Below, piece after piece: positions 25,276 to 37,879 of a stretch of 59,503 nt of DNA. The notes beneath the pieces are model-generated. The model saw only the letters and a program-made list of their open reading frames with translations, ran no database searches and had not been told where the DNA came from. Made by a program: the position numbers and the translations under genes. Each line of letters opens with the position of its first letter. Positions within the stretch are counted from its first letter, which is position 1. Source of the DNA: Oscillospiraceae bacterium (lineage in GTDB: Bacteria > Bacillota > Clostridia > Oscillospirales > CAG-272); NCBI GenBank assembly GCA_015064245.1, contig SVSQ01000002.1, positions 1 through 59,503 on the forward strand, read 5' to 3'.

Positions 25276-27129
25276 ATGGACAGTAACATCAGAGTATTCA
25301 AGGAACGAGAAATAACGGCAAAGGGAAATATACTTCCTTTGTCTGAGTTTGAATTTGCAAGAGATATTCCGAATAAGATAATTAACGACGAGATCGGAGC
25401 TTATTTCGTTGCACAAGCTGAAAAAATGCTATCTGAGGAGATACCGCTCCTTCCGCTGTCTCTTTACAGAGATAAAGCTTTGACGGACGTGCGTTCAAGA
25501 TTTGAAAAGCCTCATCATAGAAGAAGAAATATACTCATGCACCTTACTCTTGCAGAAGCATACGAAAGAAAAGGCAGATTTACCGAAAAGCTGGCGGACG
25601 TTTTGTGGGCGATACTTGAGGAGACCTGCTGGGTGATACCTGCGCATTATTATCATTCTCCTAACGATCCGAAAACGCCTATTCCCGAGGTATATACCGA
25701 ATCACAGATGCCGGGACTTGATCTCTACGCCGCAAGCTGTTGCGCGTCGGTGGCTCTTACAAAATATCTTCTCAAAGAACAGCTGGACGCGATATCTCCC
25801 GTTATATGCAAAAGAATAGACCATCTTATATATCTTCGCGGAATCAGACCTTTTGTTTCGGTAACGTTTTCCTGGGCGGGAGAGAACGGTACCTGCAACA
25901 ACTGGGTCACCAATATAACGTCCAGCATACTTACAGCCGCTGCCCTTACGTTAAACGACCTCGAGCTTCGTGAAAGAGTAGCGGAAAAGGCGATGCATCT
26001 TCTCGATAACTTTTCGTCTCACTATCCCGTCGACGGCTGGTGTGACGAAGGCCCCGGATACTGGAGCGGCGCGGGCGGAAACTATTTTGATTGCCTTGAG
26101 ATTCTTGAGGATATGTCAGGCGGAAGGATCAAGGTTTACGATCATTTTCTCATAAAAAGAATGGTAGAATATATCGCGTCAGCAAATATCGACGGGAAAT
26201 ACTATCTGAATTTCGCGGATGCGAAGCCGGTTCTTGAGCAAACGGGAAAGCTGATAATGCGGTTTGCAGAGAAATGCGGTTCGGAAAAGCTGTATTCCTT
26301 CGGACGTATGACTGCGGCTAACAATCCTGTAAACACCGGGCTGTTTTTCGGAATGATCTACAGAGTTTATAAGAACTGTCTGACCGAGGAGATAAAGGAA
26401 GCCCCTGCGGTTCTCGGAGAAAAAAGACTTTGGTACGAGGAGAACAAGATAGCTATTTTCAGAGAGAACGAGGATACGTCCAAAGGGCTGTATCTTGCGT
26501 TTAAGGGCGGACATAACAGAGAGAGTCATAATCACAACGACGTCGGTTGTTTCGTGGTATATGCAAACGGAAAGCCGGTAATAATCGATCCGAGCCACGG
26601 CTCGTACGATAACGGATTCTTCGGACCTACAAGATATAAGCGATGGTATATGAAATCAAGCTATCACAGCATTCCGACAGTTGACGGCATCGAGCAATCG
26701 GCAGGAAAGACGGAGTATTCATCATCCGAAGAAACGATTGACAAGGATTTTAACATAGTCTCAATGGAGCTGAAAAACGCATTTCCGAAAAGCGCGGGTA
26801 TCGTCAGCATGAAACGCACCTGCTCGCTGTGCGACGGAAATATCAAGGTAAAAGACGATATCAGCTTAGACCACACGGGAGATATTCAGTTCAATTACGT
26901 TACGGTCGACGAGCCGAGAGTTTTAGATGAAAAGACGTTGCTTCTGGCTGAAAATGTGGCGTTTGAGTACGAATGTGACGGAGCTGAGCTTGTGATCGAG
27001 AGGGTAGAAAACACGTATCTGCCGTACGAGGATCTGAATTTTCGTTCGGTTTGGGGCAGAGACTGCCTGTGGCGTATCTGTCTGAAGACCAAAGCGAGTG
27101 AAAAAACAGCGGTAATAACTATAAAGTAA
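25276..27129 (+). CDS. heparinase II/III-like protein, paralogue 1 (no signal peptide)
   Basis: 617 aa; LEETCWVIPAHY, WCDEGPGYW, GHNRESHNHNDVGCFVVYANGKPVIIDP (Hepar_II_III signature). Confidence 0.8.
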   Translation: MDSNIRVFKEREITAKGNILPLSEFEFARDIPNKIINDEIGAYFVAQAEKMLSEEIPLLPLSLYRDKALTDVRSRFEKPHHRRRNILMHLTLAEAYERKGRFTEKLADVLWAILEETCWVIPAHYYHSPNDPKTPIPEVYTESQMPGLDLYAASCCASVALTKYLLKEQLDAISPVICKRIDHLIYLRGIRPFVSVTFSWAGENGTCNNWVTNITSSILTAAALTLNDLELRERVAEKAMHLLDNFSSHYPVDGWCDEGPGYWSGAGGNYFDCLEILEDMSGGRIKVYDHFLIKRMVEYIASANIDGKYYLNFADAKPVLEQTGKLIMRFAEKCGSEKLYSFGRMTAANNPVNTGLFFGMIYRVYKNCLTEEIKEAPAVLGEKRLWYEENKIAIFRENEDTSKGLYLAFKGGHNRESHNHNDVGCFVVYANGKPVIIDPSHGSYDNGFFGPTRYKRWYMKSSYHSIPTVDGIEQSAGKTEYSSSEETIDKDFNIVSMELKNAFPKSAGIVSMKRTCSLCDGNIKVKDDISLDHTGDIQFNYVTVDEPRVLDEKTLLLAENVAFEYECDGAELVIERVENTYLPYEDLNFRSVWGRDCLWRICLKTKASEKTAVITIK

Positions 27130-31920: not shown

Positions 31921-32132
31921 GGCTGAAAAACGTCAAAATGTCGAAAACGACATTTTGTGCTATTAAGCACACATCAACAAGACAATAAATAATATAAATG
32001 AGGCAAATTTAAAAGATAACTCGACAATAAATGCTTGAGCAAAGAGAAGAAAAGTGCTCAGAATTTGCCTTTTTAGCGAGAATTGAGTAATATTTTGTGA
32101 AAAACGTAGATGAAGTTTGTGCAAAATGCATA

Positions 32133-32161
32133 TTGAATATTTCGCGAAAAAATTGTACAAT
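32133..32161 (+). promoter_or_regulatory. sigma-A type promoter for heparinase-like paralogue 2
   Basis: TTGAAT (32133-32138), 17-nt spacer, TACAAT (32156-32161). Confidence 0.55.
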
Positions 32162-32202
32162 ATAAATGTCACTAATTTCTGGCAGACAAGGAGGAATTTG
32201 TA

Positions 32203-34053
32203 TTGAAACGTAGGTTATTTGAAGAACGAAACTTTAATGTGACCGGCAAAGTCGTTCCGTACCAAAGTTTCAAACTGTTTATTGATAAACCCGAAGGTTT
32301 CAACATATGTGAAGAACATCGGGCAAAAATTATCAGTACCGCAGAGGAATGGCTTGAATATGAGTTTCCCGTAATTCTGGCGACAGATTATATGATGTTC
32401 AAAAGAACCGGTGACAGAACCGTGTACGGCGGGAAGTACGGAAAGCGGCGGCAGGCTGTAATGGCACTCGCTCTCGCAGAGTACTTTGAAAGACAGGGCA
32501 GGTTCACTGACAAGCTCATCGACGTTATCTGGATGACTCTGGAGGAAACAACGTGGGTAGCGTCAGCGCACAATCCTTCGAAAGAGGGAGTAAATACTTG
32601 TTTACCGTACGCTCATTCCGGCAAAGTCGATTATATCGACCTGTTCTCAGCTACCATAGCCGCAACGCTTTCATTTATATATTACCTGTGCGGTGATATC
32701 CTTGACGGCGTTACGACCCTGATCAACGAGAGGATCTTATATGAATTAAACAGAAGGATCCTTGAGCCGTTCCTTGATGACTACTGCATCTTAAGTAAAA
32801 TGGGATGGACGGGTGTAAAAGGAAATAAAGTTAATAACTGGAATCCCTGGATAGTTTCAAACGTGCTTACGGTTTGTGCTCTTACAGAAAGAGACCCGAT
32901 AAGAAGGGAAGCCGTTGTAAGACGAGCTATGAAATATCTCGATAACTTTACATCAGTTTACCACGATGACGGCGGATGCGACGAGGGACCGAGCTACTGG
33001 GGCGCGGCAGGCGGAGCGCTGTTCGATTGTTGCAACATACTGTACGATCTGACAGACGGATACGTTGATATCTTTGACGACGAACTATTACGAAAAATGG
33101 GTGAGTATGAGGCTAAGGTTGCAATACATGGTAACCGCTTCCTCAATTTTGCGGATTCACCCTCTAAACTGAACCCAAGCGGTGGACTGATTTACGACTG
33201 GGGCTGCAGATGCAATTCCGAAATGCTGAAAACATTCGGACTGTCACGTCTGAACGGCGGACTCATAAGTTCGAAGCCCGACATAAATCACATCTATCGA
33301 TATTTCCGTTTAGCAAGCGAGCCTAAACACGAAGCGGCAGAGTACATCGCGCCCACGAAATTCTACCTTGACGGTATAGTAGTGGCGGCTGCGCGAGAGA
33401 CCGAAGCTACGGACAAAGGCTTGTATCTCGCATTAAAGGGCGGAGCGAATAACGAAAGCCATAATCACAACGATATTGGTAACGTTATAGTCTTCGCGGA
33501 CGGAAAGCCGATCTTCATCGACGCGGGTTCCGGAACATATACTCGCAGAACCTTCAGTAAGGACAGATACACGATATGGGCTATGCGCTCCGATTATCAC
33601 AATTGCGCAACAGTGAACGGAGTGATACAAGAAAAAGGCGCTGAGTACCATTCGGAAGACGAAGAGTATGACGAGACGAGCGGAAAGCTGAAAATAAGTC
33701 TCAAGCGCGCATATCCCGAATCAGCAGACATAGCAGAATACACACGAAGCGCGGTCCTTGAAAACGCAACGGCAATCATTGAAGATGACATCAAGTTTAA
33801 TAACGAAGGAGATATCGTCTTTAACTATCTGTGCGTGGAGGAACCCTCAGACGTAACGGAAGATTCCTTTGTTCTGAGCGGTCGCAGGATAACCTTTGAC
33901 GCATCTCTTGAGTTCAAGTACGAGACAGTTGATTGCTCCTGGGTTGAAACAGCTAAAATTCCTACAAACTGGGGCGTTGAAAGCATATACCGCATAACAC
34001 TGACAAGCAAAGACAAGATAAAAGAGAAAAAATACGTTCTGACAGTTAAATAA
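32203..34053 (+). CDS. heparinase II/III-like protein, paralogue 2 (no signal peptide)
   Basis: TTG start after AAGGAGGA. 616 aa; LEETTWVASAHN, GCDEGPSYW, NNESHNHNDIGNVIVFADGKPIFIDAGSGTYTRRTF. Confidence 0.8.
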   Translation: MKRRLFEERNFNVTGKVVPYQSFKLFIDKPEGFNICEEHRAKIISTAEEWLEYEFPVILATDYMMFKRTGDRTVYGGKYGKRRQAVMALALAEYFERQGRFTDKLIDVIWMTLEETTWVASAHNPSKEGVNTCLPYAHSGKVDYIDLFSATIAATLSFIYYLCGDILDGVTTLINERILYELNRRILEPFLDDYCILSKMGWTGVKGNKVNNWNPWIVSNVLTVCALTERDPIRREAVVRRAMKYLDNFTSVYHDDGGCDEGPSYWGAAGGALFDCCNILYDLTDGYVDIFDDELLRKMGEYEAKVAIHGNRFLNFADSPSKLNPSGGLIYDWGCRCNSEMLKTFGLSRLNGGLISSKPDINHIYRYFRLASEPKHEAAEYIAPTKFYLDGIVVAAARETEATDKGLYLALKGGANNESHNHNDIGNVIVFADGKPIFIDAGSGTYTRRTFSKDRYTIWAMRSDYHNCATVNGVIQEKGAEYHSEDEEYDETSGKLKISLKRAYPESADIAEYTRSAVLENATAIIEDDIKFNNEGDIVFNYLCVEEPSDVTEDSFVLSGRRITFDASLEFKYETVDCSWVETAKIPTNWGVESIYRITLTSKDKIKEKKYVLTVK

Positions 34054-34358
34054 AAGGACATAAGCAAGCCTGATATTGACCAAGGAAATTAAGTTACATC
34101 ACAAAACCGCGTACTTACCGAGACACGGCGGTCAAGGTAAGATAGGCGTCACCTTCGGATATTTGCTCACGGCTCTCAAAACTTTTGCGAGAAATGCACG
34201 GTACTATAGGAGGAATTACGTATCTGCTTCAAACAAAGTTAGCGAATGACGAAATAGCATAGTCGGCATTCCGAATCAGAGCTTTGATAAATATACGTTA
34301 CGGATTTAGCTCAAGTGATTGCTTTAAACTGACTAATGAGTAACACCGAGATGCAAAA

Positions 34359-34561
34359 CCAATAGCGAAACCTTATATGACAATAGAGAAATGACAAAAC
34401 AAACCTAATAGATAAACCCAATAGAAATAGTAAACCCAATAGAAACCCAATAGAGAAGACCAATAGAAATAGAAAACCAATAGTAAACCAACAGAGACCC
34501 ATAGAAAACAATAGCATACAATAGACATAGCAAACCCTAAATAGAAAGAACAGAGCAATAG
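34359..34561 (+). repeat. array of about 15 C(C)AATAG direct repeats (A-rich, strand-asymmetric)
   Basis: 10 exact CAATAG copies (6 as CCAATAG) plus single-mismatch variants in 203 nt, mostly 10-13 nt apart. Over 34381-34560 the + strand is 56% A and 12% T. Confidence 0.9.
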
Positions 34562-34774
34562 AGTTCCGATTATCACAGAGTAGTTCGGTCTTCGGAACTG
34601 ACCGAGCGGCGATGTGAATATTGCTCAACCAATCTGTATCTGAAATGAAGTTTCAACGGCTAAGCGATGCAAAGCGACACAAAGTGATTCAGTCGACAGT
34701 TTCACCAAGTGAAGCGATGCAGAACGAGGTTTTTGATTCCGAATAGCTTTTACAGATCAGACCTAAAAACAAAG

Positions 34775-34819
34775 ACGGTTCTCCTGCCTGAATCCCGGGA
34801 GAACCGTTTAATTTTTTTA
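34775..34819 (+). terminator. strong intrinsic terminator closing the ORF-free tract (also hairpin+T run on the minus strand)
   Basis: ACGGTTCTCC (34775-34784) / GGAGAACCGT (34798-34807), then TTAATTTTTTT. Confidence 0.8.
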
Positions 34820-34831
34820 TCAAAAGAATAA

Positions 34832-34863
34832 TAAAAAAAGATCCCGCAACAATGTGCAGGATC
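34832..34863 (-). terminator. intrinsic terminator of tRNA-Val
   Basis: Minus strand GATCCTGCA..TGCGGGATC hairpin (34840-34863) followed by T7. Confidence 0.75.
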
Positions 34864-34865
34864 TA

Positions 34866-34942
34866 TGGTGGAGACAACTGGGATCGAACCAGTGACCTCA
34901 TGCATGTCAAGCATGCACTCTAACCAGCTGAGCTATGCCTCC
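34866..34942 (-). tRNA. tRNA-Val (anticodon GAC), CCA encoded
   Basis: Minus strand GGAGGCATAGCTCAGCTGGTTAGAGTGCATGCTTGACATGCATGAGGTCACTGGTTCGATCCCAGTTGTCTCCACCA. 7-bp acceptor stem, anticodon loop TTGACAT, GTTCGATCC T-loop. Confidence 0.95.
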
Positions 34943-34952
34943 GTACTTTAGT

Positions 34953-34981
34953 ATTATATCATATTTTAACCTAAAATGCAA
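34953..34981 (-). promoter_or_regulatory. sigma-A type promoter of tRNA-Val
   Basis: Minus strand TTGCAT (34976-34981), 17-nt spacer, TATAAT (34953-34958), about 10 nt upstream of the tRNA 5' end. Confidence 0.65.
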
Positions 34982-35062
34982 TATGTAATATTGCACAAAA
35001 TTTGCGTGGATAACGCCTTATTTTCTTTAGTATTTTTTATTTAAGAAAGGACTTAGCCAAAA

Positions 35063-36934
35063 ATGAACGAAAGAGTATTCGACAAAAGAAATTACAACAT
35101 TGTAGGTAAGCTCGTTCCATACGAACATTTTAAGATATTCTGCGATAATCCTGATGGTTTTAAGATCGATCCCGGACATTATTCCAATATTATTTCAAGA
35201 GCTGAAGGACTGCTGGATAAAGAATACCCAATGCTTATTGCCTCGGATTATATGATGTATAAGCGTGACGGCAACCGCGCCATTTACGAGCTCAAGTATA
35301 TGGAAAGAAGACAGGATATTCTGGTACTTTCTCTTGCAGAGTTTATTGAGAAAAAGAACAGATTTACCGATACTATCATAAATCTTATGTGGATGCTACT
35401 TGAGGAAACAACTTGGGTTATACCTGCGCACAACCATCCTAAAAAGGACGTAAATACCTGCCTGCCGTACTCTTTTTCAGAAAAAGTTGACTTCTTCGAC
35501 CTCTTTTCCGCTATGACAGGAGCTTGCGTCGCATTAGTATATCACCTTATGAAAGAGCGCTTTGACAGCGTTACTACGATCATTAATGACCGAATAATCT
35601 CCGAACTTGACAGAAGACTGATAGAGCCATTCCTAAACGACGTTGATATGATAGAGCATCTGTGGTGGTCTGGCTCAAGAGGCAATAAGGTAAACAACTG
35701 GTGTCCTTGGATCGTCTCAAATATTCTAACTGTTTGCGCTCTTTGCGTCAAAGAAAAGGGGAAGAGAGAAGCGATCGTAAAACGTTCACTCCCTCTCCTC
35801 GACGCATTTACCGCTACCTACCACAGCGACGGAGGCTGCGATGAAGGTCCCAGCTATTTCAACGTTGCAGGAGGCGCACTGTTTAATGCCTGCGAGGTAC
35901 TGTACGACCTAACAAACGGATATATAAATGTTTACGACGATCCGCTGATCAAAAATATGGGCGAATACGCGGTAAAGGCGATAATCAACGGCGTAAGAGC
36001 TATGAATTTTGCGGATTCGCCGTCTAAAGTAAATATAAATCCCGTGATGATGTATCTATGGGGGAAACGCTGTAATTCGGAAATGATGATAAGCTACGGT
36101 CAGAATCGTCTGAACGGCGAGCTTTATGATACGGTCGCTCAAAACGGAATCAATATGAACCTTGTTTATATTCCGTATAGGGCATTCAAGTTTTTGTGTA
36201 TTCCGAGACTTGAAAAGACCGATTTCGTAGCGCCGAAAAAATTCTATCTGGACGGCATCAAGATCGCAGCTACAAGAGAGTATACCGATACTTCAAAAGG
36301 CCTATACGTGGCGTTTAAGGGCGGTACAAACAACGAAGGTCATAACCACAACGACTTAGGTACTACAATAGTCTTCGCGGACGGAGAGCCGATCTTCCTT
36401 GACGCAGGCTCGGGAACATATACACGCAGGACATTTAACGAAGAAAGATACACCATCTGGTCAATGCTCTCCGACTATCATAACTGCGCCACGATCAACG
36501 GAGTCACTCAGAAGCAGGGAGCAGAGTACGTCACCTGCGACGAGGTATATGACGAAAATATCGGTAAGCTTACCATGTCTCTTTTAAAGGCATACCCCGA
36601 GGAAGCGGGAATCGAGTCGTATTACAAGAGCGCTGTTCTTGAAAACTCTGCGGTGATTATTGAAGACAAGATCAAACTCAAAGCGCCCGGACAAATTATG
36701 TTCAGCCTTATTTGCGATTGCGAGCCCGAAAACGTTACGGATAGTTCCTTCACCGTACACGGAAGGGAAGTCCGCTATGACGCTTCACTTGAATTTAGTT
36801 CCGAGCCCCTTGATAAGACCTGGTCCGAGACGGCAAATATCCCTTCGCATTGGGACGTGGAGACTCTGTACCGCATAACTCTTACTACCAAAGAAGACAT
36901 AAGTGAAAAGAATTATTTGTTAACTGTTAAATAA
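35063..36934 (+). CDS. heparinase II/III-like protein, paralogue 3 (no signal peptide)
   Basis: 623 aa; colinear with paralogue 2 (roughly 60% identical by eye). LEETTWVIPAHN, GCDEGPSYF, NNEGHNHNDLGTTIVFADGEPIFLDAGSGTYTRRTF. Confidence 0.8.
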   Translation: MNERVFDKRNYNIVGKLVPYEHFKIFCDNPDGFKIDPGHYSNIISRAEGLLDKEYPMLIASDYMMYKRDGNRAIYELKYMERRQDILVLSLAEFIEKKNRFTDTIINLMWMLLEETTWVIPAHNHPKKDVNTCLPYSFSEKVDFFDLFSAMTGACVALVYHLMKERFDSVTTIINDRIISELDRRLIEPFLNDVDMIEHLWWSGSRGNKVNNWCPWIVSNILTVCALCVKEKGKREAIVKRSLPLLDAFTATYHSDGGCDEGPSYFNVAGGALFNACEVLYDLTNGYINVYDDPLIKNMGEYAVKAIINGVRAMNFADSPSKVNINPVMMYLWGKRCNSEMMISYGQNRLNGELYDTVAQNGINMNLVYIPYRAFKFLCIPRLEKTDFVAPKKFYLDGIKIAATREYTDTSKGLYVAFKGGTNNEGHNHNDLGTTIVFADGEPIFLDAGSGTYTRRTFNEERYTIWSMLSDYHNCATINGVTQKQGAEYVTCDEVYDENIGKLTMSLLKAYPEEAGIESYYKSAVLENSAVIIEDKIKLKAPGQIMFSLICDCEPENVTDSSFTVHGREVRYDASLEFSSEPLDKTWSETANIPSHWDVETLYRITLTTKEDISEKNYLLTVK

Positions 36935-36958: not shown

Positions 36959-37879
36959 ATGGAAGAGACCTTTCCTTACCTATGGATAGACCGCAAGGAC
37001 AGAAAAAGATGTGTTAAGTATTCCGCCAAAGCCACATCGATAAGGATCAAATATGAGAACGGAATCGATCAGCTTCTCATAGATCAAGTTGATGCGCTTG
37101 CAGAGTATTTGAGGAAACACTATTATTTTCCTGTAAGATGCAATATCCATATTACTGATCACAAAAGATATCGCTCAGATTCTGACGGTCATATTTTTTA
37201 CGGTGTATTTTATGATAACAATGACGTGTACCGGAAGCGAAAGCTCTATCCTGAGATATATGTCGCCGGTCGGCTTTACCGCAGTTCAAGTATCGAGCAG
37301 ATACTCTACACGATACTTCACGAGCTATCTCATTATTATCAATGGTTTTTCGATGAAATACGCGATAGAACAGATCGCAGTATTGAAATAGAAGCTACAA
37401 AATGGGCGAGGATCATACTTGAAGAGTATAAAGAGTCCCAAACTATCTCAACACCGTTTGGTAAGCTCAATATTTATGTCGACGGAGCGCCCATAAATTA
37501 TCTTCCTATAAAGCTACGATACGACCGTCCGCCATGTAAGCCGCTTTCTGCGTGCTATAGGATAAAAGGCATCGTCTCAAATGTATCCGAAGTAAAATGC
37601 GTAATAGAAACGACGGAAGACGTTGACTTTTCCCCCGAGTCAGGAGAGGATTATATATGCACAACTCTTACAAAAGATAATGTAATGCTCACCGTCGGAA
37701 CTGAAGACCCATCATACGGCAAAACTTCTAAATATAGCGTAAGACATATAGAAAACGGCTTGATATTTACGGATTTTTCGGAAAAAACTAAGTTGATCTT
37801 AGGCGTTGCATGGGTAAGTGACGCAGACGATTATGACACGCGAACATGGTACGCCGCTGATATAGCACTCGACAGATAA
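36959..37879 (+). CDS. uncharacterised protein with HExxH (HELSH) zinc-metallopeptidase-like motif
   Basis: 306 aa; TAGGAGGA RBS; 24 nt after paralogue 3 with no terminator between. ILYTILHELSHYYQWF plus downstream Glu (IEIEATKWA). C-terminal half without recognisable motifs. Confidence 0.5.
   Translation: MEETFPYLWIDRKDRKRCVKYSAKATSIRIKYENGIDQLLIDQVDALAEYLRKHYYFPVRCNIHITDHKRYRSDSDGHIFYGVFYDNNDVYRKRKLYPEIYVAGRLYRSSSIEQILYTILHELSHYYQWFFDEIRDRTDRSIEIEATKWARIILEEYKESQTISTPFGKLNIYVDGAPINYLPIKLRYDRPPCKPLSACYRIKGIVSNVSEVKCVIETTEDVDFSPESGEDYICTTLTKDNVMLTVGTEDPSYGKTSKYSVRHIENGLIFTDFSEKTKLILGVAWVSDADDYDTRTWYAADIALDR

Follow-up and report, generated by a model that had tools for sequence, protein, structure and literature searches.

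A transcribed, modular non-coding tract of about 770 nt downstream of a heparinase II/III-like gene in uncultured gut Clostridia

Background

The 59,503-nt contig stretch analysed here (hereafter the window; contig SVSQ01000002.1 of the Oscillospiraceae bacterium assembly GCA_015064245.1) carries, between two neighbouring heparinase-like genes that we call hep2 and hep3, a tract at positions 34054-34819 of the + strand in which no credible protein-coding gene can be recognized. The tract sits between the hep2 stop codon and a convergent tRNA-Val(GAC) gene, in the gene order fhs, hep2, tract, tRNA-Val, hep3. An earlier note, made from the letters of the window alone, had proposed that this region, free of open reading frames (ORFs), is a very long 3' untranslated region (UTR) or a long non-coding RNA (ncRNA). 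The ORF scan, RNA contigs and covariation analysis described below bear that proposal out: the tract is a transcribed, non-coding, modular element that evolves on its + strand in a way that preserves base pairing, and it ends in a strongly conserved terminator. From this we infer that the tract works as RNA. We regard it as probable on balance that it constitutes a modular, structured 3' extension of about 770 nt of the hep2 mRNA, functioning as a structured 3' UTR or as the source of a 3'UTR-derived RNA.

Results

Coding content of the tract

The + strand holds no ORF of 60 aa or more between the hep2 stop codon and the terminator, exactly as the earlier note had read it; the longest + strand frame measures 57 aa and begins with TTG (34076-34249). 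With a spurious minus-strand repeat frame disregarded, the gap between hep2 and hep3 (1009 nt) would be the third largest ORF-free gap of the assembly. Two candidate frames were considered and rejected. The small ORF starting at the ATG within GAAATGCACG yields frames of 15-54 aa that shift from one sister lineage to the other and have no proper Shine-Dalgarno (SD) sequence, in agreement with the statement of the note that no small ORF preceded by a ribosome-binding site (RBS) could be found. The other candidate, a 105-aa minus-strand ORF running through the repeat, is a hydrophobic repeat translation that has no Pfam match and is not conserved. No ORF is conserved across the lineages described below, frames and lengths differing downstream of a conserved ATG even between the sister lineages L033 and L097.

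Database comparisons were equally devoid of protein similarity. The six frames of the tract gave no Pfam match, and blastx against all ORFs of its own genome returned self matches only. Nothing similar to the tract was detected by blastn in phage and plasmid collections; the tract is single-copy, with no paralogous copies in its own genome. Pfam analysis of the neighbours revealed no phage genes near the tract, the neighbouring genes being metabolic. The tRNA gene showed no att-like duplicate of its 3' end, and an integration scar at this site was rejected as an origin of the tract. Four further ORF-free gaps, of 800-1260 nt, occur in the same assembly (G000 C58:9472-10734, C85:6223-7259, C22:13830-14716 and C19:21992-22795), and could contain rRNA fragments or additional ncRNAs.

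Homologous loci and phylogenetic distribution

Homologous tracts were recovered by synteny, not by sequence search, from the metagenome loci L033, L097, L098, L102 and L103 and from L104 and L109, which belong to the same species as the window. They provide five distinct sequences from three species-level lineages (the window's species; L102/L103; L033/L097), all three of which share the synteny fhs, hep2, tract, tRNA-Val (minus strand), hep3. The DNA identity of hep2 to the window is 0.88 in L102/L103 and 0.82 in L033/L097, with third-codon-position identities of 0.71 and 0.63-0.65, respectively. A decayed pseudogene, which the earlier note had allowed for should homologues carry an intact gene here, was rejected, as no residual protein similarity was found and the homologous loci carry the same non-coding tract and no intact gene.

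Beyond these loci, DNA and covariance-model searches of 12 further species of the genus and of 400 family genomes did not find the tract. BLAST of 40 relatives gave nothing besides a single 27-nt chance match. Two covariance models, R1 and R2, identified no further copy in 13 genomes of the genus and 2 x 400 of the family, the sole hit (E = 0.008) being at chance level for 400 genomes; R1 matches the homologous loci exclusively. The exact signature of the 3' hairpin, searched in 185,579 species genomes, matched once, in a Rhizobiales genome, with about three matches expected by chance, and it had no match in viral contigs. To date, the element is known solely from a small number of uncultured gut bacteria that are close relatives. 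Species G012 shows the same order of hep, tRNA-Val and hep, yet has only 40 nt from the stop codon to the tRNA; this short junction indicates that the tract was added within the genus.

In three relatives the space between the tract terminator and tRNA-Val holds an uncharacterised minus-strand ORF of 146-210 aa, whose N-terminal membrane segment is variable (Table 1). It is truncated in L033, has lost its stop codon in L102, where it reads through the terminator, and is deleted in the window, L103 and L109. L102 and L103 are 99.6% identical in hep2 and yet differ in this ORF, which indicates that the gene is being lost now.

Transcription of the tract

The RNA data come from the gut metatranscriptomes of one study, in the form of assembled, unstranded contigs of low depth. 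Contigs of X26 cover 32193-32993, 33131-33538 and 33547-34335, the last of them (791 nt, depth 9) extending across the hep2 stop codon. Lowering the identity cut-off from the earlier 95% to 80% added a 276-nt X26 contig on 34486-34760 (depth 3.1). Contigs of X17 and X25 cover 33985-34242 and 34124-34348, respectively. Transcription therefore continues past 34.1 kb; had it ended there, this would, according to the earlier note, have spoken against its proposal. The RNA contigs include no coverage of hep3 and the genes downstream, and none of fhs apart from short conserved bits, which makes DNA carry-over unlikely. The RNA of a second lineage was represented in X27, by an exact contig of L033:1186-1364 that crosses the hep2 stop codon of that lineage, and X27 also contained a contig of the 3' domain of the L102 type.

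In line with the earlier note, which had seen no good promoter in the tract, a pattern scan detected no sigma-70-like promoter within it. L033 and L097 have a promoter-like TTCGAC-17-TAAAAT after the stop codon; the window equivalent is TTGACC-17-TCACAA, with a poor -10 hexamer. Read-through from the hep2 promoter, which the note had thought the simplest model, is the best-supported origin of the tract RNA, with contigs crossing the stop codon in two lineages; an additional internal start may exist in some lineages. Since RNA contigs run across the stop codon and no terminator lies in between, the tract qualifies as 3' UTR of the hep2 mRNA. RNA depth falls roughly threefold, from 9.0 to 3.1, across the linker described below, and this drop is no more than a hint of a processed 3' species.

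Modular architecture

In all three lineages the element consists of a 5' domain, a linker and a 3' domain (Table 1). The 5' domain starts 8 nt 3' of the hep2 stop codon and measures 302-309 nt in every lineage. It is closed by helix P0, in which an invariant AAAGCAA (34061-34067) pairs with an equally invariant UUGCUUU (34319-34325). Hairpin P1 is the CTTACC/GGTAAG stem of the earlier note; half of its 14 pairs (7/14) have changed on both sides, for example from A-U to G-C and from C-G to U-A. Six of the 20 pairs of the long-range helix P2 have likewise changed on both sides, and 91.7% of its cells are paired. The GGAGGA of P3 was considered as a decoy co-varying with the hep2 RBS and rejected, such co-variation not being seen. 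Single-sequence folds of the window and of L033 independently predict the same 5' architecture.

The linker is 96-199 nt long and unalignable between lineages. Its composition is similar throughout (A 0.47-0.58, G 0.07-0.12, C above G in all lineages), with A 0.55 and G 0.12 in the window. Ten of the 31 exact CAATAG copies of the window fall in 34360-34561, all on the + strand, and the 2.15-Mb assembly contains no other CAATAG cluster. The array is confined to the window's species, its place being taken in the sister lineages by non-repetitive A-rich sequence, and strains of the window's species differ in it by indels of 11, 17, 31 and 47 nt. It is a minisatellite varying between strains; the repeat core, which the earlier note had treated as part of the element, is not a conserved component of it.

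The 3' domain spans 272-283 nt in all lineages and opens with a long hairpin. Its inner stem pairs GUUCGGUC (34583-34590) with GACCGAGC (34600-34607) and covaries; the TCGGTC/GACCGA helix of the earlier note, which lies where the note had placed it, as do all the other pairings that the note named, CTTACC/GGTAAG among them, belongs to this 8-bp stem. Of the 15 inner pairs, 7 show a change on both sides. The apical loop UUCGGAACU and the internal-loop sequence AGUUCCGA (34562-34569), both invariant, are complementary to each other, and neither AGTTCCGA nor TCGGAACT varies in any lineage. A pseudoknot drawing leaves no loop between the second strands, which makes a classical H-type knot less likely; the UUCGGAACU/AGUUCCGA complementarity more likely reflects an alternative fold or an intermolecular contact. 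The variable stretch that follows the hairpin includes the duplication of AAGCGATGCA, which exists as the note had reported, in a segment that is not conserved. Farther downstream, the stem of the GUGA/UCAC hairpin shows one pair that changes from G-C to A-U.

The terminator that the earlier note had located at 34775-34819 is real, with its stem amended from 10 to 12 bp and its U tract ending at 34818. The arms ACGGUUCUCCUG (34775-34786) and CGGGAGAACCGU (34796-34807) are followed by UUAAUUUUUUU, and the whole, usable in both directions, is nearly invariant in all lineages, loop included. Our pattern scanner skipped this terminator, its loop limit being 8 nt and the actual loop having 9 nt; it found no other + strand terminator-like site inside the tract (34054-34774).

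Table 1. Positions of the tract, its parts and the adjoining genes (window coordinates unless a locus is named)
Feature	Position	Strand	Remarks
hep2, heparinase II/III-like gene	32203-34053	+	Pfam PF07940 (Hepar_II_III_C); stop codon 34051-34053
5' structured domain	34061-34329	+	closing helix P0 enclosing P1-P4; full-length RNAalifold
P1 hairpin	34108-34148	+	CGC/GCG clamp; stem UACUUACC (34112-34119) with GGUAAGAUA (34136-34144); inner GAC/GUC helix; invariant loop ACGGCG
P2 long-range helix closing the junction	34155-34176 with 34278-34298	+	encloses P3 and P4
P3	34180-34240	+	inside P2 junction; conserved GGAGGA
P4 hairpin	34244-34271	+	GAAUG..CAUUC; inside P2 junction
Hypervariable A-rich, G-poor linker	34354-34552	+	Tandem Repeats Finder (TRF): degenerate CAATAG array, 10-11-nt (41-42-nt) tandem periods
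3' long hairpin	34553-34626	+	74 nt; invariant basal stem GAGCAAUA/UAUUGCUC
GUGA/UCAC hairpin	34684-34705	+	invariant 14-nt loop carrying palindrome GUCGAC (34692-34697); invariant run CAGTCGACAGTTTC
Intrinsic terminator	34775-34818	+	12-bp stem, 9-nt loop, U tract
tRNA-Val(GAC)	34866-34942	-	convergent neighbour outside the RNA element; own terminator 34864-34839 (span 34839-34942)
Uncharacterised ORF of relatives	L097:3189-3743; L033:1966-2406; L102:4075-4707	-	no Pfam match; missing at window 34820-34838

Conservation and covariation

The consensus structure of the 5' domain comprises 75 pairs, 20 of which have changed on both sides, and that of the 3' domain 71 pairs, 16 of them changed on both sides; in each, 90% of the cells are paired. 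When partners were shuffled, 12.3 (5') and 8.5 (3') changes on both sides were obtained, with none of 500 shuffles reaching the observed numbers, and controls with slid partners gave 1-8. In a column-shuffled control the consensus energies of the + strand corresponded to z-scores of -4.85 for the 5' domain and -11.26 for the 3' domain, the latter inflated by the terminator, and 18 and 16 compensated pairs were counted against a null of 4.8 +/- 2-3 (0/60; 5' null +/- 2.1). The same procedure applied to the minus strand returned z-scores of -2.3 and -5.7, with 9 and 11 compensated pairs; several invariant G-U pairs would be A-C on that strand. Domain length differs by no more than 7-11 nt among the lineages, against a twofold range in linker length. 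Base pairs with compensatory change, 34-36 in all, thus exceed the shuffled, slid, column-shuffled and minus-strand controls, and the relatives do display the conservation and covariation whose absence, according to the earlier note, would have told against an RNA.

Conservation is concentrated in a small number of blocks. Four invariant runs of at least 10 nt were observed against 0.19 expected, namely the terminator (24 nt), CAGTCGACAGTTTC (14 nt), ATTGCTTTAAAC (12 nt) and CGGAACTGACC (11 nt), and the longest invariant run obtained in 5000 simulations was 19 nt, compared with the observed 24. These runs include hairpin loops besides stems.

Heparinase-like genes and their promoters

At least nine heparinase II/III-like paralogues are present in the genome, including those at window 25276-27129, 32203-34053 and 35063-36934 and at G000:C67:12184-14031. 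In the relatives G010 and G002 tandem hep-hep pairs directly follow tRNA-Val; around this tRNA gene, expansion and rearrangement of the family are under way. L096, whose hep3 is 91% identical, is without the 306-aa HExxH-type ORF found 3' of hep3 in the window (window 36959-37879 compared with L096:2018-2889), and in L096 an AraC-family gene and obg come directly after hep3.

The hep2 promoter and 5' UTR (window 32094-32215) are about 90% column-identical across lineages and contain TTTGTGAAAAATGTAGATGAAGTTTGTGCAAAATGCATATTGAATATTT, a long block that is invariant. Upstream of hep3 (window 34975-34998) lies a perfect palindrome related to it, TGCAATATGTAATATTGCA, which is kept in L097 as well, and G012 has the near-identical copy TCAATATGTAATATTGCA. 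The block and the palindrome are likely operators of one hep-gene regulator.

Discussion

A probable structured 3' extension of the hep2 mRNA

Taken together, the tract looks like a new RNA element without relatives in Rfam, a clade-restricted kind of structured bacterial 3' UTR or large ncRNA. In the reading that we favour, its two folded domains would be the functional parts. The invariant loops (ACGGCG, CGGAACU/AGUUCCGA and CAGUCGACAGU) may be where a protein binds or where RNA-RNA kissing takes place; candidates for kissing or switching are the palindromic GUCGAC loop and the pairing of CGGAACU with AGUUCCG. The linker, rich in A and poor in G, would be kept unstructured as a flexible spacer and is a probable entry site for an RNase (RNase Y) or for Rho; such entry would account for an RNA depth that is about three times lower on its 3' side. 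The 3' domain with the terminator might shield the message from 3' exonucleases and, once the linker has been cut, might live on as a small RNA derived from the 3' UTR. Candidate roles of the element are the control of hep2 mRNA stability or translation, or action in trans.

Several observations weigh against this reading. The mean identity of the tract (0.72 and 0.59-0.61) equals that of third codon positions (0.63-0.71), and the share of invariant ungapped columns equals the third-position share (0.47 in both cases); with a mean identity like that of third codon positions, most positions of the tract are not constrained. The covariation comes from five distinct sequences of three close lineages (hep2 DNA identity 82-88%), too few for significance of the R-scape type, and the pairs were counted in the very alignments that had yielded the consensus structures. 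The z-scores of single-sequence folds are unremarkable (-0.9, -1.3 and -1.6), and within the species the tract gathers more single-nucleotide polymorphisms (SNPs) than its flanks. The RNA evidence consists of shallow, unstranded contigs from a single study, without mapped transcript ends. Finally, the element is missing from the rest of the genus and family, and is therefore dispensable for hep genes in general.

The tract might instead be mostly neutral spacer, the remnant of an old insertion, decayed gene or mobile element by the 3' end of tRNA-Val, in which only the terminator would be functional and the alignable blocks and apparent compensations would result from limited divergence plus chance. 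This explanation is possible but doubtful. It accommodates the third-position level of mean conservation, the minisatellite behaviour of the repeat array, the adjacent minus-strand ORF that is visibly decaying or deleted in some strains, the hep/tRNA-Val junction of only 40 nt in G012, the weak single-sequence z-scores and the narrow distribution. However, it fits poorly with compensated pairs and consensus energies that lie far beyond the column-shuffled and slid controls and are strand-asymmetric, with the excess of invariant runs, hairpin loops among them, or with domain lengths held nearly constant around a linker that varies twofold. Nor would it have predicted a tract that is transcribed and that bears neither residual protein similarity nor an att-like duplication of the tRNA end.

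It seems rather unlikely that the element represents a new class of large modular RNA acting alone once it has been released from the hep2 message. Were this so, the self-complementary GUCGAC loop and the CGGAACU/AGUUCCG pair could drive formation of dimers or oligomers or a conformational switch, and the element would be the equivalent, in a small clade, of the ornate ROOL, GOLLD and OLE RNAs, which self-assemble.

The conserved blocks might instead act as DNA, as sites for the hep regulator or another DNA-binding protein that, for example, loops the tract to the control region of hep3 and tRNA-Val. The half-sites would be ATATTGCT/GAGCAATA and ATTGCTTT, which are like the ATATTGCA palindrome 5' of hep3. 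Consistent with such sites, AATATTGCTCAA (34617-34628) agrees at 11 of 12 positions with AATATTGCACAA (34987-34998), a half-site of the hep3 operator, the operators of the hep promoters show very strong conservation in these lineages, and no variation at all is seen in the three ATTGC-type blocks or in the GTCGAC palindrome, an invariance that pairing alone would not demand. We nevertheless hold this explanation to be unlikely: it does not explain why P1, P2 and the inner stem of the 3' hairpin have undergone compensatory changes, nor the + strand asymmetry with its G-U pairs, the blocks pair with each other as RNA (in P0 and in the basal stem of the 3' hairpin), and ATATTGCWC is not clustered in the tract, two of the four window copies lying elsewhere.

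Still less probable are one or more independent small RNAs with promoters of their own, starting for instance just after the hep2 stop codon. The promoter-like hexamers of L033 and L097 agree with this idea, as does the presence in X27 of the L033-type junction and 5' domain only, not of the hep2 body; on the other side, the corresponding window hexamers have a poor -10, the scan yielded no promoter in the tract, and in both lineages the RNA contigs start upstream of the site and extend over the stop codon.

Membership of the tract in a known family of large tRNA-adjacent RNAs (ROOL, GOLLD, OLE, raiA, HEARO), or in the class of T-box-type leaders, is effectively refuted already: its size class, tRNA adjacency and herbivore-gut origin do recall ROOL and GOLLD, which often lie near tRNAs (PMC5737381), but cmscan with Rfam 15, at E up to 10 and with permissive filters, of window 33500-35500 and of the homologous loci L033 and L103 matched no family except the tRNA itself, besides weak, sub-threshold hits on the terminator only; moreover, one third of the element is unstructured linker and no prophage genes lie nearby. 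The doubt that the earlier note had voiced about a match to ROOL or GOLLD was thus well placed.

Comparison with known systems

Long functional 3' UTRs and 3'UTR-derived small RNAs of bacteria include the icaR 3' UTR of S. aureus, the hilD 3' UTR, CpxQ and SroC. Like them, the tract is co-transcribed with the upstream ORF with no intervening terminator, shares the intrinsic terminator of the mRNA and contains conserved single-stranded motifs with the potential for base pairing or protein binding. Unlike them, it is 2-5 times longer and combines two covarying folded domains with a hypervariable linker.

ROOL and GOLLD are often found near tRNA genes and/or in prophages (PMC5737381), and ROOL, GOLLD and OLE form homo-oligomers (PMC12286853). 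The tract resembles these RNAs in its 600-800-nt size class, its multi-stem domains, its place beside a tRNA gene and its gut or rumen source, and its self-complementary GUCGAC loop could mediate RNA-RNA contacts. It differs from them in having no covariance-model match, in being attached to an mRNA, in its long unstructured A-rich segment and in its restriction to a sub-clade of one genus, outside any prophage. The adjoining tRNA-Val gene is convergent, and the neighbourhood is metabolic and free of phage genes.

The CAATAG array changes its length between strains by whole repeat units, as do minisatellites or variable number tandem repeats (VNTRs). In contrast to these, it lies inside a transcribed element with conserved flanks, and the sister lineages have non-repetitive A-rich sequence instead. 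Tandem repeats that precede an intrinsic terminator are also a feature of the antitoxin RNAs (ToxI) of type III toxin-antitoxin (TA) systems. The repeats of the tract, however, are short, degenerate and lineage-specific, and no toxin ORF is encoded on the same strand, the optional neighbour ORF being on the other strand and missing from the window. A ToxI-like system was rejected, there being no + strand ORF between the tract and hep3 and no array in the sister lineages.

Conclusions

Long structured 3' UTRs and large ncRNAs are rare in bacteria, and most known classes have come from large screens that favour widespread families. The element described here is of a rarer type: an RNA of about 770 nt, restricted to one clade, in which two covarying domains are joined by an unstructured spacer. 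In uncultured Clostridia of the herbivore gut it is attached to the mRNA of a cytoplasmic heparinase-like enzyme. If functional, it would offer a compact system in which to learn how a bacterial 3' UTR regulates its own mRNA or gives rise to a regulatory RNA, how elements of this sort originate de novo between a gene and a tRNA, and how a minisatellite is tolerated inside an RNA.

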